From the NCBI GenBank assembly GCA_045613985.1, contig JAZLCA010000064.1:13837-77836 (forward strand): a DNA stretch of 64,000 bases. Direction: 5' to 3'. This DNA comes from Eubacteriales bacterium. GTDB taxonomy: Bacteria > Bacillota > Clostridia > Oscillospirales > CAG-272. The notes under the pieces were generated by a model, which saw only the letters and a program-made list of their open reading frames with translations, searched no databases and was not told where the DNA came from. The position numbers and the translations under genes are program-made. Positions 2,107 through 57,413 of the stretch are shown piece by piece. The first letter of the stretch is position 1; every line of letters starts with the position of its first letter.

Positions 2107-4374
2107 TCATTGTCCTGCCATCAGGGAGGTGGCGCGGTCGCGGTTTCGGATGCGGAAGGAAAGACCTGAGGCAAGGGGTGGGATCAGGGCGCATAAAAGC
2201 GACACACCGCCCGCGAGCAGGAGAGCTTCCCACGGGACACCGGCATCCAGCACCACCGCATCCATAAAGCCCAGGGCGGGCAGATAGCGATTGAACAGCG
2301 AGAAGACGAGACGGTGTCCGATCAGCATGGCGGGCAGGCAAAGGGCGAGGAACAAAAGTGCCTCGGCGCAGCCCGACATAAGAGACGAGCGGAGCAGTTG
2401 CCCTGACGTCGCGCCCAGCGCCCGCAGCATTTGCCATTCGCTCTCGCGCTTTTTGTAAAACACCAGCTGAGAGAAAACGGATATCAGGGGCATCATGATC
2501 AAAAATCCGGCGGCCAGCAGCTTCATCCGTCCTTCCATGTTGGACAGCGATGCCAGATAACGGTCGAAAAAGACGTCGTGGTCGGTGACGCTACAGCTGT
2601 AATAGTCGAAGCCTGCGGCGTACACAGCCTTCGACACCTGCTCCCAGGTGGCAAAATCGGCATCGCTTTGCAGATAAACGTCGGTCGAATAGCGGATGGG
2701 AGTCTCGGCAGTCAAGGCCTCGTACTGCCCGAAATTGACACCGAACAACAGCTTGGCATCCGGGGTGACGTCGCAAATCACAGCACCGACGGTGAACTCT
2801 TCGTAAGCAAAGGTACCGCTTTCCAGCTGGAACTGAAGGGTTCGCATATCATCGACAACGATACCCTCCACCTCGGCATCCACTGCCGAGACGGCAACAA
2901 GGATCTTGTCGCCCACCGAAAAATCAAACATGGCGGTGCTGTTGACGGATTCGCTGATGAGAATGGTGTGATCGTCCGAAAGGACAGAGTAGGGATCGCC
3001 CTCGACGTTGGGATACCGGGTCAGCAGAGCCCGGATCGCGGCCTCGTCCAATGCGGTGTAAGAATACGCGTTGGTGGCGGCGTGATAGCCCTGTGCGGCG
3101 GCACCGCCGTCGTAATAAACGCTGACAGAGGAGTGCGCGGCGTTGCGATCGGTCAGTAGCATATGTCCGCACACGGCGGTGGCATCGTACGCCAGAGCCT
3201 CGGGCAAGCACAGGGAGATGCCAGGAACGTCCGAAAGACGGTCAGCCAGCGCGGCGGTGTTTTCGTTGAGCGTCTCGGCGTCAACCACGGAGGGATGGAA
3301 GGTCAGGGTAAAATCGGGGGCGGGGGAGGGATGTCTTTGCTCGTAGATATTGGCGATGGTCAAGGCGGCGACGAACAGCACGGGCAGAAGCACGGTGGGA
3401 ATGAGCAACCATGCAAAATAGCGGCGGTAGCGCCACAGACTGAGCAATTCAAAATCGCGGGGGAAGGCGGCTCCGAAAATGCGGCGGGAGCGGCGGGGAG
3501 ACACCACGTGGTTGCTGTTATCACGCGCCCGCAACAGCTCCACCGGTGTCTTTTTTGACAGACGACGCATGGGGAGCTTGACGGCGGTGAGAATGGTCAA
3601 GGCGACAAACAGGGCAACCATGAAGGGAACGATGGGGGCCGTGGCAGGGAACACGCCCCGCGTGGCGTACAAAAGGACGGTCAGACCGCCGCCCAAAAGC
3701 AGGGCGGGGACGAAGGCGAGCGCCGCCAAAACGGCCAATTCGCCGCAGCTTTTGCGATACAAACGGCGATAGCCGGCGCCGCAGGTCATGCAGATGGCGT
3801 AGTCGAAGGTGTCACGGTCCAGGCGCATACGGTACAACTGGATCAGCCAGAAAACGGATAGACCAAACACGACGAGCGTGGCAAGAGTAACGAAGACGAG
3901 AATGTCGGGCAGATATTCCGTTTTGTAGTCGTACAGAGGGGAGTATCCCACCTCTAATCCCTCGATCCCGTGGCGGTAGAGAAAGTTCTCGGCTGCGATA
4001 CGGCGGGTGATCCCCTTCAGGGTTATGTAGGCGTTATAACTGCCGTCCGACATCTTCTCGTAGCGGATGGCAGAATAGGCGGCAGATTTGAGGACGGCTG
4101 CCGGCTCGGTGCCGCAATCATTATAGAGCTGAACGTATTGGGGCTGTGTCATGCCGCGGTATTCCAACTCGTAATCGTAGGTCTCGGTCACCGTTCTTCG
4201 TACGGTGGCAAGATCGGTCGCCGCCGACATAAACAGAACGGTGTACAGTGTTTGGACGATAAGAAGCGCTAACAGAAAGGCGATATGTGACGAAAGGTTA
4301 TGGAGCAGAGTGTCAAAAGCACCGCGTTTGGCTTTTCTTGCGGTTTCTTTTTGGGGGACGTCGCGTTGGGGCAT
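2107..4374 (-). CDS. ABC transporter permease, FtsX/MacB family, with large extracytoplasmic regions
   Basis: 755 aa with multiple TM segments and a C-terminal FtsX-like 4-TM block. Sits immediately upstream of the ATPase gene. RBS AAGGAGG. Confidence 0.8.
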   Translation of the reverse strand: MPQRDVPQKETARKAKRGAFDTLLHNLSSHIAFLLALLIVQTLYTVLFMSAATDLATVRRTVTETYDYELEYRGMTQPQYVQLYNDCGTEPAAVLKSAAYSAIRYEKMSDGSYNAYITLKGITRRIAAENFLYRHGIEGLEVGYSPLYDYKTEYLPDILVFVTLATLVVFGLSVFWLIQLYRMRLDRDTFDYAICMTCGAGYRRLYRKSCGELAVLAALAFVPALLLGGGLTVLLYATRGVFPATAPIVPFMVALFVALTILTAVKLPMRRLSKKTPVELLRARDNSNHVVSPRRSRRIFGAAFPRDFELLSLWRYRRYFAWLLIPTVLLPVLFVAALTIANIYEQRHPSPAPDFTLTFHPSVVDAETLNENTAALADRLSDVPGISLCLPEALAYDATAVCGHMLLTDRNAAHSSVSVYYDGGAAAQGYHAATNAYSYTALDEAAIRALLTRYPNVEGDPYSVLSDDHTILISESVNSTAMFDFSVGDKILVAVSAVDAEVEGIVVDDMRTLQFQLESGTFAYEEFTVGAVICDVTPDAKLLFGVNFGQYEALTAETPIRYSTDVYLQSDADFATWEQVSKAVYAAGFDYYSCSVTDHDVFFDRYLASLSNMEGRMKLLAAGFLIMMPLISVFSQLVFYKKRESEWQMLRALGATSGQLLRSSLMSGCAEALLFLALCLPAMLIGHRLVFSLFNRYLPALGFMDAVVLDAGVPWEALLLAGGVSLLCALIPPLASGLSFRIRNRDRATSLMAGQ

Positions 4375-49683: not shown

Positions 49684-50361
49684 ATGTCTTACCAGATGTC
49701 ACTCAAAGAAAAAGTTATCAGCTACACCAAGGAAACGGGTATTCTGCCCTGCATCAAGCTGCACCACAAGGATGACTATATTGCCTATGCCCAGGCGATG
49801 TACGACGGCGGCGCCCGCGTCATTGAGGTTACGATGACCACCCCCGGCGTGCTGGAGGCCATCGAAGCCATTTCGGATCATTTCGGCGACAAGCTGCTGG
49901 TTGCGGCAGGTACGGTGCTGGATCCCACCTCCGCCCGTGAGGTAATTCTGCACGGCGGCAGCATCATCGTCAACCCCTGCGTCATCGAGGACGTTATCGA
50001 CCTGGCCAACCGCTACAACGTGCCCGTATTCAGCGGCGCGTTCAGTGCGACCGAGGTGTTCAACGCCATGCGTGCAGGTGCTACCATGGTCAAGATCTTC
50101 CCGGGTGCTTTGGGCGGTCCCAAGTACATGACCAACCTCAAAATGGTGTTCCCCGAGGTCAACCTCATCCCTTCGGGCGGTATCACCCCCGAGAATGCCG
50201 GCGAGTTTATCCGTTGCGGCGCGTGTGCCGTTTCGGGCGCCCGCACCTTCATGGACTTTGATAAGATCGAGCGCGAGGGCCTCGTCTCGGTCACCAATCA
50301 GGTCAAGAAGTTCATCGATATTATTGCTGAGGCAAAGAAGAACGTGCCGATCATTCCGTAA
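49684..50361 (+). CDS. eda: KDPG / 4-hydroxy-2-oxoglutarate aldolase
   Basis: 225 aa. EVTMTTPG and MVKIFPG (Schiff-base Lys context) motifs. Adjacent to kdgK. Confidence 0.85.
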   Translation: MSYQMSLKEKVISYTKETGILPCIKLHHKDDYIAYAQAMYDGGARVIEVTMTTPGVLEAIEAISDHFGDKLLVAAGTVLDPTSAREVILHGGSIIVNPCVIEDVIDLANRYNVPVFSGAFSATEVFNAMRAGATMVKIFPGALGGPKYMTNLKMVFPEVNLIPSGGITPENAGEFIRCGACAVSGARTFMDFDKIEREGLVSVTNQVKKFIDIIAEAKKNVPIIP

Positions 50362-50376
50362 GGATGACAAGAAAAT

Positions 50377-50420
50377 AAAACAACCGCGGAGTGAATTTCA
50401 CTCCGCGGTTGTTCTTTATA
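50377..50420 (+). terminator. Terminator of the sugar-acid operon
   Basis: 16-17 bp stem AACAACCGCGGAGTGAA/TTCACTCCGCGGTTGTT, then CTTTAT. Confidence 0.75.
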
Positions 50421-50522
50421 AATTCTCATTTTGGGAAATAATCAATTCTATGGAATCATAAAATCGCCCTCTTAAAATTTGTTTTATCATATCCGATTTA
50501 AAAAGTCAATCCTCTTGCAGTC

Positions 50523-50568
50523 AAATCCCCTTGCTTTGCAAATACTAACATCACAAAAGTGTGAAAAA
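50523..50568 (+). repeat. Direct repeat, copy 1 (decayed duplicate of the spoVT promoter/leader segment)
   Basis: Hand alignment with 53161-53206 gives 38/46 identical positions (32 of the first 35). Confidence 0.8.
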
Positions 50569-50569
50569 C

Positions 50570-50598
50570 TTGACATTCTAACGCAAAAATGTTATAAT
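50570..50598 (+). promoter_or_regulatory. sigma-A consensus promoter (TTGACA-N17-TATAAT) of the Cys-repeat protein gene
   Basis: Perfect hexamers at 50570-50575 and 50593-50598. Confidence 0.65.
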
Positions 50599-50661
50599 CA
50601 AAAAAACGACTTTTGTCAGTTGTATTTTCTGCGTTTTTTTAATCAGAAAGGTAACCATGCT

Positions 50662-53151
50662 ATGAAACATATGTTTTTTCGATTGATCGCTGTCATTTTT
50701 GCTCTTATAATAACGTGCAGCATCATTCCGGCCGGATCTGCATTAACAACTGTTAGCAGAATTGATGCACACAAGGCGTATTATGATTATTTAAAGGCAG
50801 AGATAGAGGGACTTGGCGGCCCGGTTCGTGATGAAGACTATTACGAAATGTTTACTGACCACATCAAGCGTCCGGCTATCACGCAGAAGCTCCTCGCCGT
50901 ATATCTTGTAGATGTGACCAATGATGGTATAGAAGAGTTGGTGATCAAGCGCTACGTGACCCATGATTCAAGTGCTATGCTTGATTCTGACGATGCGGAA
51001 TGGGTCTGCATCTATTCCTATGTGAATGGCCAGATTAAACGAATCGGGCAAAATAAACAGTGGATCCGCCCTGCGAATGCAACAGCTTGGTCCTACTATG
51101 AGCCTGATGGCTATATTGGCGATATTCTTAGTTTCTGGCAGAATCCTCATATTTCGAATGATTGTGTCACCCTCTTCTGGGGAAAAGACGGAGAAGTTTT
51201 CTTGTGTGACGGAGAAGTACTCACATCAAGTGAGTGTTCTTTCTCTTTCTATAGCTTTAATGGCACGCACATGGAAAGAGAGGACTGGTTCAATATTATC
51301 TTTGTTCCCGAATGGACCCTCGGGCCTATTCAGTCCTCGTACGGATACCATATCCATGAAATCAACGGTGAGAAGGTTGAACAAAAAGAATTCAAGGCCA
51401 AAGTGGATGACTATACGGCAAGCGGATCCTATAAACTGCAAAATAATGACTATAATGAGGTGCTGAATATTCTCAGCATGACCATCCAGGGAAAGGACGT
51501 GCCTTACGGTGATGCCAATCCTCACTGCCACATTCCATCCGCTGAATGGATCAGTGTGGGCGGTCAGCACTACCGCACATGTCAGAGTGGGTGCGATGTA
51601 AAGCTTGATTTGGATTTTTGCGCCGGCGGCATAGCAACTTGCCTGGAAAAGGCTACATGTTCCGTTTGTCACCAGTATTACGGTGATTTAAAAGAACATT
51701 CTCCGTCATCGGTATATTCCCATGCGGACGGGCAACACTTTTTCAAATGTAGTATCACACCAAACTGTACTGTGGTCTTTGACAAGGAGGACTGCACAGA
51801 TAACAACCGGGATCACAAATGTGATGTCTGCAAAAAAGCCGGTATGGGAACTCATGAAGCTGCTATCGGCACGCATATATGCAATTACTGCGGAAAACGT
51901 GATTCTGATTCTGATTGCGTAGATAATATCCCGGATCATAAATGCGATTACTGCGACACGACTCTCTCACAATGCATAGACGACAACCGAGATCACGAAT
52001 GCGATATCTGCAAAGCCGCCGTAGGCAAACATCAAGCACCTTACGGGAGCCATTCCTGTAGTTACTGCAAGGAATCGATCTCTGAATGCACAGACGACAA
52101 CCGGGATCACAAATGTGATGTCTGCAAAAAAGCCGGCATGGGAACTCATGAAGCCGCTGTCGGCACGCACATATGTAATTACTGTGGAAAACGTGATTAT
52201 GATTCGGAGTGCGTAGATAATATCCCGGATCATAAATGCGATTACTGCGATGCGACTCTCTCTAAATGCACAGACAACAACCGAGATCACGAATGCGATA
52301 TCTGCAAAGCTGCCGTAGGCAAACATCAAGCACCTTACGGGAGTCATTCCTGTAATTACTGCGGCGAACCGCTCTCTGAATGCACAGATGACAACCGGGA
52401 TCACAGGTGTGATGTCTGCCGCGACTATATTAGTAACCATGAAGCTGTCGGCTCGCACATCTGTAGTTATTGTGGTGTTCCTGTTCCTAATTCTGTGTGC
52501 GTGGATAATAACCGAGATCACAAATGTGATATCTGCGGAGATAATGGTTTCGGCACTCATATGTCCGCTACCGGTACGCATATTTGCGATTACTGCAACG
52601 CCCCTGCTTCTGAATGCACGGACAAAAACAAAGATCACAAATGCGATAGGTGCAAAGACAGCGTTGGTGCGCATGAAGCTCCTGCCGGTAAACACGTCTG
52701 TAATTACTGCAACGAATCTATCTCTGAATGTACAGACAAAAACAGCGATCACACGTGCGATATCTGTGGAAAATCTGTCGGCACTCATATGGCCGCTACC
52801 GGTACGCATATTTGTGATTATTGCAACGCCCCTGCTTCTGAATGCACGGACAGAAACAGGGATCACAAATGCGATGCTTGCGGAACCTACCTTGGCACTC
52901 ACGAGGCTGCGGACGGTACCCATCTGTGCGATTACTGCAGTCAACCCATTTCTGAGTGTGAAGACGATAACAAGGATCACAAATGTGATGTTTGCGGAAA
53001 GGACGATGCCTCTTCGTCTGAACATTACCAAGATAATCTCCAAATGGGTTGCAGTGGTACAATTACCGGGATGCTCTTGTTGGAAATTGCTTTGAGCGGT
53101 GTAGTCACTTTTGTTATTGTGAAAAAACGAAAAATAAAGTATCCTCGATAA
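50662..53151 (+). CDS. Membrane-anchored surface protein with 12 Cys/His-rich C-x-D-x-N-x-D-H-x-C-D-x-C modules (unknown family)
   Basis: Start at MKHMFFRLIAVIFALIITCSIIPAGSA (signal peptide; the track ORF starts further upstream). N-terminal domain of about 300 aa. 12 modules such as CTDDNRDHKCDVCKKAGMGTHEAAVGTHICNYCG. C-terminal TM GTITGMLLLEIALSGVVTFVIV + KKRKIKYPR. Confidence 0.8.
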   Translation: MKHMFFRLIAVIFALIITCSIIPAGSALTTVSRIDAHKAYYDYLKAEIEGLGGPVRDEDYYEMFTDHIKRPAITQKLLAVYLVDVTNDGIEELVIKRYVTHDSSAMLDSDDAEWVCIYSYVNGQIKRIGQNKQWIRPANATAWSYYEPDGYIGDILSFWQNPHISNDCVTLFWGKDGEVFLCDGEVLTSSECSFSFYSFNGTHMEREDWFNIIFVPEWTLGPIQSSYGYHIHEINGEKVEQKEFKAKVDDYTASGSYKLQNNDYNEVLNILSMTIQGKDVPYGDANPHCHIPSAEWISVGGQHYRTCQSGCDVKLDLDFCAGGIATCLEKATCSVCHQYYGDLKEHSPSSVYSHADGQHFFKCSITPNCTVVFDKEDCTDNNRDHKCDVCKKAGMGTHEAAIGTHICNYCGKRDSDSDCVDNIPDHKCDYCDTTLSQCIDDNRDHECDICKAAVGKHQAPYGSHSCSYCKESISECTDDNRDHKCDVCKKAGMGTHEAAVGTHICNYCGKRDYDSECVDNIPDHKCDYCDATLSKCTDNNRDHECDICKAAVGKHQAPYGSHSCNYCGEPLSECTDDNRDHRCDVCRDYISNHEAVGSHICSYCGVPVPNSVCVDNNRDHKCDICGDNGFGTHMSATGTHICDYCNAPASECTDKNKDHKCDRCKDSVGAHEAPAGKHVCNYCNESISECTDKNSDHTCDICGKSVGTHMAATGTHICDYCNAPASECTDRNRDHKCDACGTYLGTHEAADGTHLCDYCSQPISECEDDNKDHKCDVCGKDDASSSEHYQDNLQMGCSGTITGMLLLEIALSGVVTFVIVKKRKIKYPR
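51793..52380 (+). repeat. In-frame tandem duplication, 2 x 294 bp (98 codons = 3 Cys modules each)
   Basis: TGCACAGA..GGGATCAC at 51793 recurs at 52087, and GATCAC at 51811 versus 52105. The units are near-identical at the nucleotide level. Confidence 0.9.
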
Positions 53152-53156
53152 TACCA

Positions 53157-53185
53157 GTATAAATCTCCTTGTTTTGCAGATACTA
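53157..53185 (+). promoter_or_regulatory. Forespore-type (sigma-G/F-like) promoter candidate of spoVT: GTATA-N17-GATACTA
   Basis: Resembles the published GHATR-N18-CATxHTA sigma-G pattern. spoVT is sigma-G dependent in Bacillus. Spacing and the first -10 base deviate from consensus. Confidence 0.45.
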
Positions 53186-53206
53186 ACATCACAAATCTGT
53201 AAACAC
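53161..53206 (+). repeat. Direct repeat, copy 2 (functional spoVT promoter/leader)
   Basis: See 50523-50568. Directly followed by RBS AAGGAG and the spoVT ATG. Confidence 0.8.
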
Positions 53207-53224
53207 AAGGAGATTTTTATATAT

Positions 53225-53788
53225 ATGAAAGCCACAGGAATAGTAAGAAGAATCGACGACCTCGGGCGCGTTGTCATTCCCAAAGAAATAAGAAGAACCA
53301 TGCGCATCCGCGAGGGGGATCCTTTGGAGATCTACACCGACCGCGAGGGTGAGGTGATCTTTAAAAAGTATTCGCCCATTGGCGAATTGGCAGGCTTTGC
53401 TTCGCAATATGCGGAGACGCTGCACAAGACATGCTCGCTCTCGATAGTCATTTGTGACCGCGACGCGGTGATTGCCTGCTCGGGCGTTCCCCGCAGAGAA
53501 TACAGCGATAAGCCCTTGTCGGACGAGCTGGAGGCTATCATCAACAGCCGTTCCTTGTACGTTTGGCACGAGGGCGAGGAGAAGCTGCCTGTACTGTCCA
53601 CATCGGGCGAGGCGGGGCATTTTGTCAGCTGTGCCATGCCCATCCTGAGCGAGGGTGATATTATCGGCTGTGTGGTATCGGTACAGCCGATGGAGGGGGC
53701 GCGCGGCGCCGGCGTGCCGACGGGCGACGTGGAAGTCAAGCTCATTCAGACAGCCGCAGGGTTTCTCGGCAAACAACTGGAAAGCTGA
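53225..53788 (+). CDS. spoVT: Stage V sporulation protein T (AbrB-family regulator with GAF-like domain)
   Basis: MKATGIVRRIDDLGRVVIPKEIRRTMRIREGDPLEIYTDREGEVIFKKYSPI is the canonical SpoVT/AbrB swapped-hairpin N-terminus. 187 aa. Confidence 0.92.
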   Translation: MKATGIVRRIDDLGRVVIPKEIRRTMRIREGDPLEIYTDREGEVIFKKYSPIGELAGFASQYAETLHKTCSLSIVICDRDAVIACSGVPRREYSDKPLSDELEAIINSRSLYVWHEGEEKLPVLSTSGEAGHFVSCAMPILSEGDIIGCVVSVQPMEGARGAGVPTGDVEVKLIQTAAGFLGKQLES

Positions 53789-53839: not shown

Positions 53840-54298
53840 TCACAAATATGCTTTGAGCCGTTCGACGTTTTGTTCTTCGAAGCGAATGATATCTCGGGCG
53901 AGAGTAAGTGTGTCCTCACCGGCATTGCTGTTCTCAAATTGACGCAACAGCGTGATGGTCTCGTTCATATTCATGGTCGAGCCCTGAATCACCATATCGG
54001 CCAAGTGGCTGACGGTGGTGTCCAGTATGGTTTCCATGGCAGTGCCTGCTTTGGCGGTCATTTTGTTCCACAAACTGTCGTCGCAGGGGTTCTCCCCGCC
54101 CTGACGAAACAGCGTATTGATGCGATTGGCGTAGCGCTCGTAGCCGTCCAACTGCAATGTCAGATCGCTTTTGAAAGCGCCGTTCTCCCGCTCGATCTTG
54201 GGAAGCAGGGACAGGATCGAATCACTTCCCATTTTGACGTTGTTGTACAGTTGCTTGAGCAGCTCTGCGGTGCTGCTTTTCATGGTTGCGCAAGACAT
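53840..54298 (-). CDS. Hypothetical helical protein (152 aa)
   Basis: Start at MSCATMKSS.. after GGAAAGGA. Predicted all-helical by eye. No motif recognised. Confidence 0.5.
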   Translation of the reverse strand: MSCATMKSSTAELLKQLYNNVKMGSDSILSLLPKIERENGAFKSDLTLQLDGYERYANRINTLFRQGGENPCDDSLWNKMTAKAGTAMETILDTTVSHLADMVIQGSTMNMNETITLLRQFENSNAGEDTLTLARDIIRFEEQNVERLKAYL

Positions 54299-54416
54299 AC
54301 GATATCCTTTCCTTGCCACGCTTGGAGTGGTGGCGGTCATACAATATAAAGCGGGCATTGCCCGCTTTGGTAGTATGTGCAATGCCCGTTTAGGTATTCG
54401 GTTAAGTAAGGATTTA

Positions 54417-55427
54417 TCACAGACCCTTGCGGATCTTTTGAGCGCGGACGTCGGTGCCGAGAAAGAGCAGCACGCGGTACTCGCCAAACAAGCGGCTGGT
54501 AATGCGGTCCCAGTAACGGCGGCGAAGCTCTTCTTGCATCAGATTGGTATTGATGATGGTCGGACGGCGCAGGTTCATGCGGGTGTTGATGACGTTGTAG
54601 AGGGCCGAGACGGTAAACTGGTTGGCTACCTCGGTGCCCAGATCGTCGATGATCAACAGATCGACGTTGTAATAGCGGTCGAGATTGGATTCGTCCGAAG
54701 GGCCGATGCTGTTGCCGAAGCGCTCGGCTTCAAAGGCAGACACCATGCCGACAGCGGTGGTGTACAGTACGTCGTGGCCGTTATCCAGCACCGTTTTCGC
54801 GACGGCAGTGGACAGATGGGTCTTGCCCAGTCCCGTGCCGCCGATGAGAAGCAAGTTGTCGCTGGCGGGGTGGGTGGCATCTCCCAGCGTGAAGGTGGCC
54901 GCCCAATGCTGCAGCATACGCAGAATGGCGGACATGGTGCGAAAAGTGCGCTCGTCGTTTTTGAAATAGTCGAGCGAGTAGTTGTCAAAGCTTTGGGTGC
55001 GCAGCAGATTGCCCAGCCCCGAGGTCTGATAGCCTGCCATGCGAAGCTGTGCCTTCATACAATCGCACATGGAGGTGTCGTCCAAAAAACCGGTGTCACT
55101 GCATTTGTCACATTCGTAGCGCAGCTCGGTATAATTGGCGGGATAGCCTGCGGCGGTCAGCAGTGCGGTGCGGCGGGCAAGCAATGCCTCGTTCTTTCTT
55201 CGCAGAGCCACGATGGCAGCTTCGCGAGCGGCATCGTCTCCGGCATTTTCCAAGGAGGCGCGCATGATGTCCAATCCCACGTGCGACAGCGCGCGGTGAA
55301 TGTCAGCTATCTCGGGAATGAGCAGCTCGATCTCGCGGCGGCGGCGCTCGGCGTCCTCGCGGGCGCGCAGATATTTGGTTTCATATTCTTGCCGAATGCG
55401 GCGGTAATTTTGCTGATTGTAAGGCAT
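54417..55427 (-). CDS. DnaC/DnaI-like AAA+ helicase loader
   Basis: Start at MPYNQQNY.. (RBS AGGAGG). Zn-like CDKCSDTGF..CDC, Walker A GGTGLGKTHL, Walker B DLLIIDDLG. Confidence 0.8.
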   Translation of the reverse strand: MPYNQQNYRRIRQEYETKYLRAREDAERRRREIELLIPEIADIHRALSHVGLDIMRASLENAGDDAAREAAIVALRRKNEALLARRTALLTAAGYPANYTELRYECDKCSDTGFLDDTSMCDCMKAQLRMAGYQTSGLGNLLRTQSFDNYSLDYFKNDERTFRTMSAILRMLQHWAATFTLGDATHPASDNLLLIGGTGLGKTHLSTAVAKTVLDNGHDVLYTTAVGMVSAFEAERFGNSIGPSDESNLDRYYNVDLLIIDDLGTEVANQFTVSALYNVINTRMNLRRPTIINTNLMQEELRRRYWDRITSRLFGEYRVLLFLGTDVRAQKIRKGL

Positions 55428-55595
55428 GAGAACCTCCTGTGATGTTTGTCTGCAAGCTTCTCGAATAACCAAAGGCCTCCGCCTTTGTGGAGCGAGTGGG
55501 TAGGACCTCACGAGCTTGCGGTAGCTGTTGTGCGGGCGAGCGAAAGAACTTTCCACTTTGCCCTGATAATTTCACTTTTAAAGTTTTTGAAGATC

Positions 55596-55627
55596 CTTAA
55601 GAAACTTTTTTCAAAAAGTTTCTTAAG
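55596..55627. repeat. Perfect AT-rich palindrome CTTAAGAAACTTTTT-TC-AAAAAGTTTCTTAAG
   Basis: 15-bp arms that are exactly complementary, inside the 214-nt dnaD-dnaC spacer. Confidence 0.85.
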
Positions 55628-55641
55628 CCGCCGGAGGCACT

Positions 55642-56676
55642 TCAACGCTCCTGTTTCTTTCCCGCCTCGTAGTCTTCCCCAAAACTGCGCTTGAGCGCGG
55701 CATCGAAAAAGGCGTCGGTGTCAAAGCTGTTACCGGGCTCACTCTTGGCTTGTCCTGCGGTGGCGCGGCTTTGCTCGGCGGCCTTAATATCGTCCAGCGT
55801 GTGCAGATCGGAGGCCGCCCAACGCTCCAGGATGGAGTTGGTGTAAGGAATGGAGGACTTGCCGATGGCATCCACCGCGATCTCGTAGGCGAGGGTAATG
55901 ATATCCATGCCGTAGCGATAGGTAAACAGCCAAGTGTCGATGTGCTTGCGCTCTTTGGTCGTCAGGGCGCGGCTGTTCATGCCGAACAGCGTGCGGATCT
56001 TGCCCTCCATCTCATTGAGCTCTTGTCTCTTTTTGAGGCACTCTTGCAGTGCGGGAAGAGAGGTGATGCCTTCGTCGTACAAGGAGAAGGCCAGTTTTTC
56101 GGCGTAGCGGACGCTCTTTTTGCCGACCTTGACGCAGTGAGCTAACAAGAGCAGTAAATATTCGCTGTCCACGCCGAGATAATCGACGATGCCCAACAGA
56201 ATGCTCGTTTCATGCGTGCTGAATACCTTGCCGAGTATGCGGGAGCACTCGTCGACCAAAGAGGCCAGCTCGCGCCGCTTTTCCAACAGCGCAACCAGCT
56301 CCTCGGTTGAATAGCGCGGGAGAGATGCCGGGGAGGGAGTGACGGCCGCGGCGGAATCCACGGTAACGACGGGGGCGGGAGCCGGCACCGCGACAGGCGC
56401 AGGTTCGGTCGGTTCCGCGGGCTTGGCCGCACTCTTTTTTTGTGCCGGAGCGTCGGTGATCTTCAAAATGCCCGCTCCTTCAAAATAGGCAAGCGCCCGT
56501 TCTACCGTCAATGCATCGCACCCTGTGTCGGCGGTCAGCTTTTCCTTGGAAGGATTTTTGCCGGCGGCAATGCAGATCAATATTTTGAGAAGATCGCCGT
56601 TCATGTCGGACAGACGGGCGAGGATCGCCTCGGGAAGATTGATGACACCGGTCCCAAATTGTAATTGATACTTCAT
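55642..56676 (-). CDS. DnaD-domain replication protein (DnaB/DnaD-like)
   Basis: Start at MKYQLQFG.. (RBS AAGGAG). C-terminal ..RYGMDIITLAYEIAVD..SIPYTNSILERW is a DnaD-domain pattern. Upstream of the dnaC-like gene. Confidence 0.75.
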   Translation of the reverse strand: MKYQLQFGTGVINLPEAILARLSDMNGDLLKILICIAAGKNPSKEKLTADTGCDALTVERALAYFEGAGILKITDAPAQKKSAAKPAEPTEPAPVAVPAPAPVVTVDSAAAVTPSPASLPRYSTEELVALLEKRRELASLVDECSRILGKVFSTHETSILLGIVDYLGVDSEYLLLLLAHCVKVGKKSVRYAEKLAFSLYDEGITSLPALQECLKKRQELNEMEGKIRTLFGMNSRALTTKERKHIDTWLFTYRYGMDIITLAYEIAVDAIGKSSIPYTNSILERWAASDLHTLDDIKAAEQSRATAGQAKSEPGNSFDTDAFFDAALKRSFGEDYEAGKKQER

Positions 56677-56693
56677 CCGGGTTCTCCTTGTCC

Positions 56694-57413
56694 TCATCCC
56701 TGATCCGCGTGATCGCGGCCGTGGGCGCACAGCTTGTAATTGAGCGTCATGAGAGAGTCGCCCAAGTGGACGTTTTCAACGATGATGGTGTCGTCGTCAA
56801 AGGGAAGCTCCGCTCCCGTGAAGTTCCAAAGTCCCCGTACCCCCAGTGCTACCAGCTGGTCGGATACCTCTTGCGTAGCCTCCTTGGGCATGGTCAGCAC
56901 GGCGAAATCAACGCAGTTTTCTTCGCAGAACTGGGCAAGCGTATCCATGTGACGGACGGCAAGCGATCCAAAGGGCTTGCCGATCAGATCAGGATTGATG
57001 TCGAATAGTCCAATGATATCCACACCCCGCTTTTCAAACATGGTTGAGCGGACGAGGGCACGGCCGAGGTCACCGATGCCGATGACAATGGCGTTCAGTC
57101 CCGCGCCAACACCCAGGATATCACAGATCTTGGCGTACAGATAGTTGACGTTGTAGCCGTAACCCTGCTGACCAAAGCCGCCGAAGCAGTTGAGGTCCTG
57201 TCGGATCTGAGAAGCCGTGACGTTCATGCGGGCGGACAGCTCTCCCGAGCTGATGCGCATCTTGCCCTCTCGCAACAGCTCCCGCAGATAGCGGAAATAG
57301 CGGGGCAGACGCTTGATGACGGCCTGGGAGACGTTGGGGCGCTCGGTTTCCTGAATATTATTTTCGGAAGAGGGGAGCAACTGCTCCTCCTTGAAATTGG
57401 TTTCGTTATTCAT
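56694..57413 (-). CDS. rex: Redox-sensing transcriptional repressor Rex
   Basis: RLPRYFRYLREL, SSGELSARMNVTASQIRQDLNCFGGFGQQGYGYNV, and the Rossmann motif IGIGDLG. Start at MNNETNF (9 nt after GAAAGGAG). Confidence 0.92.
   Translation of the reverse strand: MNNETNFKEEQLLPSSENNIQETERPNVSQAVIKRLPRYFRYLRELLREGKMRISSGELSARMNVTASQIRQDLNCFGGFGQQGYGYNVNYLYAKICDILGVGAGLNAIVIGIGDLGRALVRSTMFEKRGVDIIGLFDINPDLIGKPFGSLAVRHMDTLAQFCEENCVDFAVLTMPKEATQEVSDQLVALGVRGLWNFTGAELPFDDDTIIVENVHLGDSLMTLNYKLCAHGRDHADQG

Follow-up and report, generated by a model that had tools for sequence, protein, structure and literature searches.

Introduction

Periscope proteins of Gram-positive bacteria present a head domain on a stalk of variable length (PMC8201768, PMC9704523). 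The stalk folds known for them are domains of 50–165 residues, mostly beta-sandwiches (PMC9704523), and neither the periscope review (PMC9704523) nor a survey of fibrillar adhesins (PMC8286594) mentions a stalk based on cysteine or zinc. Here we analyse the gene for a predicted 829-amino-acid surface protein (positions 50662..53151, + strand, a single open reading frame (ORF)), which lies immediately upstream of the sporulation regulator gene spoVT in a 64,000-nucleotide stretch of contig JAZLCA010000064.1 from a Eubacteriales bacterium (the whole stretch is called the window below). On balance we think it probable that this protein carries an orphan head on a periscope-like stalk of variable length (4 to 21 knuckles), built from a new bead that is probably stabilised by Zn and Ca, and that its gene is an old accessory cassette at the spoVT promoter. 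What is new here is an undescribed, widespread repeat; the variable-length stalk of a surface protein is already known.

Four other kinds of element bear on the comparison. Zinc knuckles and ribbons (rubredoxin-type CPxCG; L37Ae, S27ae and RpoP; C2H2) belong to proteins which bind nucleic acids inside the cell. Thrombospondin type 3 (TSP3) and LDL-receptor class A modules are short extracellular units built around bound cations and nearly devoid of secondary structure, as in the 'wires' of TSP3; disulfides staple them, and they lack a conserved His. The ZAS anti-sigma motif, H-x3-C-x2-C (zf-HC2), is cytoplasmic, present in a single copy and set in a helical context. Finally, single-gene genomic islets combine atypical composition with a direct repeat from a duplicated target. 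An earlier note on this DNA, made from its letters alone, had proposed an acquired, expanding surface protein with 12 Cys/His-rich modules; parts of that proposal are carried forward below and others are replaced.

Results

A 19-residue Cys/His repeat

The array of the window protein (amino acids 378–779; 51793..52998, + strand) consists of 21 units of about 19 residues, each with an H-x-C-x-x-C knuckle. Twelve of them contain an acidic loop (C-x-D-x-N-x-D-H-x-C-D-x-C), and the other nine, the B-type units, have the form H-x5/6-H-x-C-x-Y-C. The earlier note had paired an acidic loop with CxxC knuckles in each module, and the pairing, with a D-x-D-x-D loop, is confirmed. The true unit is 19 and not 38 residues long, as comparison of 716 modules from 172 proteins shows that both halves of the 38-residue module are one and the same 19-residue unit, [C/H]-x-D-x-[D/N]-x-[D/N]-H-x-C-D-x-C. 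Conservation across these modules is 92% for C1, 99% for D3, 99% for H8, 100% for C10, 97% for D11 and 99% for C13, and at position 20, where the second half begins, H occurs in 62% and C in 33%. The pattern [C/H]-x6-H-x-C-x2-C is matched exactly by 20 units of the window protein. Its B-type halves have lost the acidic residues and kept the four Cys/His positions, and some arrays elsewhere in the family carry only two Cys and two His per unit. A CxxxC variant of the knuckle, C-D-Y-G-C (e.g. in ...DHACDYGCGK... arrays), forms long, regular arrays of 19-residue units in other family proteins.

The repeat is widespread, with at least 1,184 protein clusters that contain it, for the most part giant secreted proteins of Clostridia. 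That number was reached at E ≤ 1e-3 in an exhaustive phmmer search with amino acids 290–785 against 1.84 billion cluster representatives; 148 proteins passed E ≤ 1e-30, and lengths of 1,000–4,500 residues are frequent. A hidden Markov model of the module, built from the window and applied to 189 collected proteins, located 1,501 modules in 172 of them, and arrays in relatives reach about 60 units. The named members come from metagenome-assembled genomes of uncultured Clostridia, Oscillospiraceae or Ruminococcaceae and are all annotated 'hypothetical protein'. Signal-like N-termini are present in 152 of the 172 repeat-family proteins; 47 end in a transmembrane helix and basic tail, with the array stopping a median of 62 residues before the C-terminus. 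The domains that accompany the arrays are of surface or adhesin types, i.e. BspA-type LRR_5, Flg_new, SLH, CW_binding_2, cohesin, dockerin, Big_2 and Laminin_G_3.

The earlier note did not place the repeat in a named family, and we find none. The window protein has no Pfam or NCBIfam match even at E = 10, and it has nothing significant among PDB sequences. The Pfam models TSP_3, TSP3_bac and Ldl_recept_a match neither the window protein nor 45 relatives; zf-C2H2_6, TRASH and Zn_ribbon are reached by a few relatives through the summation of many weak repeats. The repeat is undescribed in the literature that was searched.

Predicted structure and probable metal ligation

With a shallow full-length alignment of 17 sequences, AlphaFold2 (AF2) modelled the repeats at a predicted local distance difference test (pLDDT) score of only about 30. 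An in-register alignment of 36 four-module segments gave a mean pLDDT of 91.2 with no residue below 70. Neither helices nor strands are seen in the resulting model, in which each C-x-x-C turn is flanked by beta-bridges in the geometry of a knuckle. Two hallmarks of a zinc knuckle are present, four Cys/His ligand positions per unit in the sequence and a CxxC in a tight turn in the model. A PDB search with the repeat profile gave sub-threshold matches only (best E = 0.064), all of them to Zn knuckles or ribbons (C2H2, L37Ae, S27ae, RpoP, SBP and Fpg), and a Foldseek search against BFVD, made with the first model only, gave nothing significant. The unit therefore resembles knuckles and ribbons in its H-x-C-x-x-C-G turn closed by a modelled beta-bridge and in its four Cys/His ligands, and no PDB or Pfam profiles other than theirs come near it. 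It departs from them in lacking a significant match, in being predicted to lie outside the cell, in its [C/H]-x6-H-x-C-x2-C spacing with an embedded acidic loop, in arrays of up to about 60 units, and in a His8 that apparently serves the next unit.

This last feature was brought out by an analysis of array position, in which units were detected without using positions 1 or 8. His8 is conserved in 94% of first units (n = 197) and 95% of internal units (n = 1,548), falling to 30% of last units (n = 207) and 14% of isolated units (n = 28). In last units, conservation at position 1 and at the four acidic positions is the same as elsewhere. Since conservation of His8 fails only in units that no other unit follows, His8 seems to be needed only where the array continues, and we infer from this pattern that it either contributes the last ligand to the site of the following bead or packs against that bead.

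His can replace Cys as a metal ligand and cannot do so in a disulfide. Metal ligation is favoured over disulfides because His is as invariant as Cys, because Cys and His interchange, because whole arrays have two Cys and two His per unit, and because the conservation of His8 depends on its place in the array. The knuckles probably ligate metal, with Zn the most likely ion, and of the two roles that the earlier note had left side by side, metal binding or disulfide stapling, the conservation pattern supports the first and disfavours the second. The D3/D5/D7/D11 pattern looks like a Ca-type loop. It is not an EF-hand proper, to which the earlier note had likened it: the confident model contains no helices, Glu is missing at loop position 12 and there is no Pfam match. 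As the nine B-type units have no acidic loop, Ca binding cannot be essential to the fold.

The alternative that the units are disulfide-stapled Ca-binding loops in the manner of TSP3 or LDL-receptor A, with no transition metal, is unlikely. It would account for a D-x-[DN]-x-[DN]...D loop conserved at 97–99%, for the extracellular setting and for a model whose lack of regular secondary structure resembles TSP3 'wires'. Short Cys/Asp-rich modules in tandem, with D-x-D-x-D cation loops, are indeed common to both. However, the knuckle unit is shorter and matches no Pfam model of that class, its His8 equals Cys in invariance (99%), and position 1 swaps Cys and His. Staples are also hard to reconcile with three Cys per unit, an odd number, with the arrays of two Cys and two His, and with B-type units of the window which have no acidic residues and keep H...H-x-C-x-x-C. 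The hosts, moreover, are strict gut anaerobes, in which extracellular disulfide formation is unusual. The ZAS motif shares with the unit a His shortly before CxxC and a Zn ligand set in a bacterial protein; it differs in spacing, which is H-x-C here, and the window protein has no Pfam match. A haem-binding CxxCH motif was considered and rejected, as the order is wrong and no His follows CxxC.

Head, anchor and stalk of variable length

The order of parts set out in the earlier note, from signal peptide and N-terminal domain through a Cys/His lead-in and 12 acidic-loop modules to a C-terminal transmembrane helix and KKRK, is recovered in full. A hydrophobic, signal-peptide-like N-terminus (amino acids 1–27, MKHMFFRLIAVIFALIITCSIIPAGSA; 50662..50742, +), modelled by AF2 as a helix at residues 2–20, is followed by an N-terminal domain of about 260 residues (amino acids 28–289; 50743..51528, +), the lead-in (amino acids 290–377; 51529..51792, +), the 21-knuckle array and the membrane anchor (amino acids 797–829; 53050..53148, +), which comprises a GCSG motif, a hydrophobic helix and the KKRK tail. 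The predicted layout, with the head at the N-terminus behind a signal-like segment and a single C-terminal helix before KKRK, agrees with the secreted, membrane-anchored protein that had been proposed, and a sortase motif is absent. Models of LPXTG and -CTERM sorting signals, run against the C-terminal tail, gave at best Loki-CTERM at E = 0.18, below its cut-off. A G-C-[SG]-G motif precedes the transmembrane helix and basic tail in 10 of the 172 family members; it occurs at 53050–53070 of the window (amino acids 797–803) and at the C-termini of P0002–P0009, P0050, P0087 and P0157, and could be an unrecognised signal for processing or lipidation, or else act as a terminal metal ligand. A lipoprotein signal was discarded since the Cys of the signal peptide is not conserved among orthologues, as was a RiPP or SCIFF-type precursor, given a secreted, membrane-anchored protein of 829 residues. 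The lead-in, which contains Cys, His and Trp, is a separate, unannotated type of repeat with 10–21 matching stretches in other proteins, e.g. P0113, P0142 and P0100.

The head domain is modelled by AF2 at pLDDT 80–97 as a beta-rich fold with flanking helices. It carries the nearly invariant motif YLVDVTNDGIEELIIKR. DVTNDGIEELV, which the earlier note had seen as like a Ca loop, is itself nearly invariant across the family. Searches of Pfam, of PDB sequences and with Foldseek yielded no relative. A weak SurA_N_2 match (E = 0.01–0.1, in two of 14 members) was taken as noise, and Foldseek matches to beta-propellers, with a template-modelling score of about 0.1, were not counted as evidence. The domain occurs in only about 30 protein clusters and in two forms, either on a stalk with a transmembrane helix or in proteins of about 450 residues fused to SLH. 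This alternative SLH anchoring of the same head supports a surface role.

Stalk length differs widely among orthologues, with four knuckles in most, eight in P0003, 14 in P0002 and 21 in the window protein, so the array has expanded here, as the earlier note had held. The same note had seen a near-perfect tandem duplication of 2 x 294 bp (51793..52380, +). The duplication is real and in frame; 'near-perfect' overstates it, as the copies differ at 25 of 294 nucleotides (91.5% identity), with codon differences that are synonymous in 11 cases and non-synonymous in 12. The closest orthologue, P0002, lacks the duplication, which is confined to this lineage. The 114-bp units are 66–78% identical in DNA. 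Because of this variation in stalk length the protein would behave like a 'periscope' protein. In common with the stalks of periscope proteins and fibrillar adhesins (SasG/Aap G5-E, Rib, and SHIRT in Sgo_0707; PMC8201768, PMC9704523, PMC8286594) it has a predicted layout of N-terminal head, repeat stalk and C-terminal anchor, and in both cases repeat number is altered by in-frame DNA duplication, to the extent that the orthologues here differ five-fold. In contrast to those stalks, the unit has 19 residues, no secondary structure and an apparently metal-organised fold, the anchor is a transmembrane helix rather than a sortase motif, and the DNA identity between repeats is 66–91% rather than near 100%.

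The 21 potential four-ligand sites, up to about 60 in relatives, could instead be the point of the protein: the array would then be a high-capacity extracellular binder for the capture, buffering or detoxification of Zn, Ni, Co, Cu or Fe, or a redox chain. To this we attach little credence. The extreme conservation of the ligands and the very different partner domains of the arrays are in its favour. However, the arrays sit like spacers between anchors and globular domains, the number of units varies freely among orthologues, the apparent coupling of neighbouring units by His8 reads as structural, and no metal transporter or regulator stands beside the gene in any locus.

A probable old insertion in the spoVT promoter

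The AT-rich stretch noticed earlier between the eda terminator and spoVT is evident in the composition of the window: GC content falls to 0.37–0.48 across 50250–53250, against about 0.55–0.60 in the flanks. The left edge of the stretch is the terminator of eda, the upstream gene, a perfect hairpin of 17–18 bp at 50377..50415. GC content at third codon positions (GC3) is 0.453 in the gene and 0.648 +/- 0.074 in the 35 other long ORFs of the window, making it the lowest of the 36 (z about -2.6). The single gene here has its own sigma-70-type promoter, as had been read, TTGACA-17-TATAAT with a TG extension (50570..50598, +; 12 of 12 positions matched), and an equivalent TTGACA promoter precedes every orthologue.

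The imperfect direct repeat that flanks the gene (50523–50568 and 53161–53206) was recomputed at exactly the 38 of 46 identities counted by hand before; a repeat finder gives 86% over 43 nucleotides. Divergence between the two copies amounts to 17%. The downstream one lies right against the stop codon of the gene and belongs to the native spoVT promoter and leader (53157..53220, +), a sigma-G-type promoter with GTATA at 53157–53161, a 17-nucleotide spacer and GATACTA at 53179–53185. GTATA-N17-GATACTA is conserved in about 30 related spoVT loci without the gene, many of which have a AAAAGTCAAT element just 5' of it. The upstream copy (50500..50568, +) has decayed to GTCAA (50520–50524) and AATACTA (50541–50547), so that both identifications made in the earlier note hold. 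This copy also retains, at 50500–50510, the AAAAAGTCAAT element, which is situated 5' of the intact spoVT promoter in gene-free loci, as would be expected if the gene had gone into that promoter and about 45 bp had been duplicated. A partial upstream copy is present in L007 as well, and most orthologue loci have lost it. Within the upstream copy there is a 16-nucleotide tandem repeat, AGTCAATCCTCTTGC / AGTCAAATCCCCTTGC, at 50504–50534; the half-site pair AAAGTCAAT...GTATAAATCCCCTTG of intact spoVT promoters elsewhere matches its pattern and may be the binding site of a regulator.

In four other contigs (L001, L003, L004 and L006) spoVT is immediately preceded, in the same orientation, by orthologues with 48–64% identity. 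In L005 (2350–2500) and L007 (2895–3031) spoVT has been deleted, and the first 15–20 nucleotides of its promoter still follow the stop codon of the orthologue. The stub in L005 joins the last ~12 codons of spoVT and then a homologue of the window's ORF at 53840–54487. These two lineages may have lost the regulator and kept the surface-protein gene. The gene thus immediately precedes spoVT in five of seven loci, and a remnant of the spoVT promoter persists in the other two. Upstream neighbours differ in every case: eda in the window and, elsewhere, ADP-ribosylglycohydrolase, nitroreductase, deaminase and pyrophosphatase genes. Two tandem paralogues in L004, 19 bp apart (781–2559, 592 amino acids; 2579–4099, 506 amino acids), show that the family also grows by duplication of whole genes.

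The gene is accessory, as had been supposed, and is far from being carried by all relatives: it is missing from 80 of 80 species-representative spoVT loci (SpoVT 61–78% identical to that of the window) and from L026, a close relative of L003 whose flanks are 86–90% identical in DNA and which has 180 bp where L003 has 1,870 bp. An exact empty site for the window's own lineage was not found; the nearest SpoVT relatives, L008, L010 and L014, do not share the eda side. On the SpoVT tree the gene-bearing loci do not form one clade. L026 also encodes a 258-residue membrane protein with a HELSH motif (304–1080, - strand), between the shared promoter and the nitroreductase gene, which L003 lacks; this difference between the two loci is independent of whether the surface gene is there, and the conserved spoVT promoter motif is missing in L026.

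Atypical composition and a flanking direct repeat are both marks of a genomic island, and the earlier note took the gene for an acquired, expanding insertion. On such a reading it would have arrived recently, by horizontal transfer into the eda–spoVT spacer, and would not yet have adapted in composition. Besides the low GC3 and the direct repeat, the absence from all representative loci, the scatter on the SpoVT tree and a 294-bp duplication missing from the closest orthologue all speak for recent arrival. The chance of this is nonetheless small. Six other contigs hold orthologues of only 48–64% identity at the same site beside unrelated upstream genes. The gene is below its neighbours in GC and GC3 in every orthologue locus (e.g. 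L003, GC3 0.60 against 0.77–0.79) and, because all orthologues share this, AT-richness is a long-standing property of the family and no mark of recent arrival. The 294-bp copies already differ at 8.5% of sites, the divergence of the flanking copies and the loss of the upstream one in most orthologue loci point the same way, and no integrase or transposase lies beside the gene in any locus. A tblastn search of plasmids and phages found nothing, and a link to mobile elements is not supported. The locus is like a single-gene islet in its atypical composition, its target-derived direct repeat and its presence or absence between L003 and L026, and unlike one in that the insertion is old and common to several lineages at one site, mobility genes are lacking, the copies are only about 50% identical and low GC has persisted. 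The simplest history is a single old insertion of a promoter-bearing cassette into the spoVT promoter, with duplication of ~45 bp, and then vertical descent, tandem duplication and repeated loss. The flanking repeats could promote such loss by recombination, and transfer into the same site in different lineages is conceivable.

A hairpin in the spoVT leader

The RNA of the spoVT leader (53157–53220) is predicted to fold into a hairpin of -25.9 kcal/mol (z = -6.4; none of 200 shuffles was as stable), which pairs the -35 and spacer region of the promoter with the spoVT ribosome-binding site. When 34 spoVT leaders were folded singly, the ribosome-binding site was at least 80% paired in 20 of the full-length RNAs, in 19 of these 20 with partners upstream of the -10 element; in transcripts starting just after the -10 it was paired in only one of 34. 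The hairpin is found also in L003, L004, L006 and about 30 of L008–L087, including gene-free loci. RNAalifold gave no consensus structure for the leaders, whose alignment is gappy and whose ribosome-binding-site arm is invariant, and no Rfam family matches. From these models, the hairpin may block translation of SpoVT from read-through RNA and tie it to the sigma-G promoter, and that may explain how the locus can tolerate a gene that has a consensus sigma-70 promoter and lacks its own terminator.

A sporulation or spore-envelope role, with adjacency to spoVT reflecting co-regulation, would fit the position of the gene, the promoter remnants in L005 and L007 and the forespore-type copy upstream of the gene in the window and partly in L007, but is very improbable, given that this copy has decayed (GTCAA for an otherwise invariant GTATA), that every orthologue has a canonical sigma-70 promoter, that the gene is kept where spoVT is deleted, that most spoVT loci lack it, that SLH-anchored paralogues with the same head are not near spoVT and that, with the leader hairpin in place, translation of SpoVT would not follow from read-through. 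Because the SLH forms lie elsewhere, we regard adjacency to spoVT as an inherited position and not as a functional link to the head.

Downstream, the conserved neighbour spoVT (53225..53788, +) encodes an AbrB/MazE-type N-terminal domain and SpoVT_C. It is followed by a conserved ORF of 215 residues to which no function is assigned (53840–54487, -), with homologues in L005, right after the spoVT remnant, and in L008 and L010, and then by DnaD-like and DnaC/DnaI-like genes at 54417–56730.

Discussion

In the account that we favour, the protein would be secreted and tethered by its single C-terminal helix, with a stalk of 19-residue repeats holding the ~260-residue head away from the membrane. 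At the centre of each knuckle there would be a metal site of thiolates and imidazole, most likely for Zn, made by position 1, Cys10 and Cys13 of one unit together with His8 of the preceding unit, and most units would in addition have a Ca-type acidic loop (D3, D5, D7 and D11). As His8 would work with the next unit, the beads would interlock as a rod rather than a flexible string. Stalk length would change by in-frame duplication (4, 8, 14 or 21 knuckles). The gene would be an old cassette which landed, with its own sigma-70 promoter, in the spoVT promoter, duplicating about 45 bp; a subset of uncultured gut Oscillospiraceae-like Clostridia would since then have passed it on, duplicated it or lost it. 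The native hairpin over the ribosome-binding site probably keeps read-through from the surface gene off SpoVT translation. The analysis shows the architecture of the protein, its distribution, the pattern of conservation, the synteny and a confident knuckle model; the rigidity of the stalk, exposure at the surface, the identity and stoichiometry of the metal, the function of the head and insulation by the hairpin are what we infer here.

Several observations weigh against this account. The best PDB match of the repeat model by Foldseek has E = 4.3, and this lack of a counterpart is soft evidence as Foldseek is weak on small irregular folds. The proposed ligand geometry and the sharing of His8 are drawn from conservation statistics. 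Cys10 and Cys13 formed part of the rule by which units were detected in the array-position analysis, which is therefore silent on their conservation at array ends, and the window's own last unit retains His8. Nine units of the window protein, the B-type, have no acidic loop. The range of 4 to 21 knuckles comes from comparison between species and not within a population, and no relative whose function is known could be detected for the head.

A more far-reaching claim, plausible to us but short of probable, is that the unit is a bead of a new, extracellular class. Each bead would hold two metals, one in a Zn-type Cys/His site and the other in a Ca-type acidic loop, and a shared His would lock neighbours together. 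Among the rigid stalk modules of bacterial surface proteins it would be the smallest known. Uncultured gut Clostridia use the unit in more than 1,000 protein clusters, some of them giants longer than 4,000 residues.

If the beads do bind metal, the long 'hypothetical' stretches in those clusters would be explained and the repeat would merit a new domain family. The idea of the variable-length stalk would extend to a metal-organised module about a third of the size of any known stalk domain, and chemistry like that of zinc fingers would operate, unusually, outside the cell and in strict anaerobes. The bead might also serve in protein engineering as a compact, rigid and tunable spacer. The locus itself is a case of an accessory gene long maintained within the promoter of an important regulator of sporulation, and a conserved hairpin over the ribosome-binding site of that regulator comes to light there. 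For the gut Clostridia that carry the repeat, beads that bind metal would be an abundant and so far unannotated building block of the cell surface.

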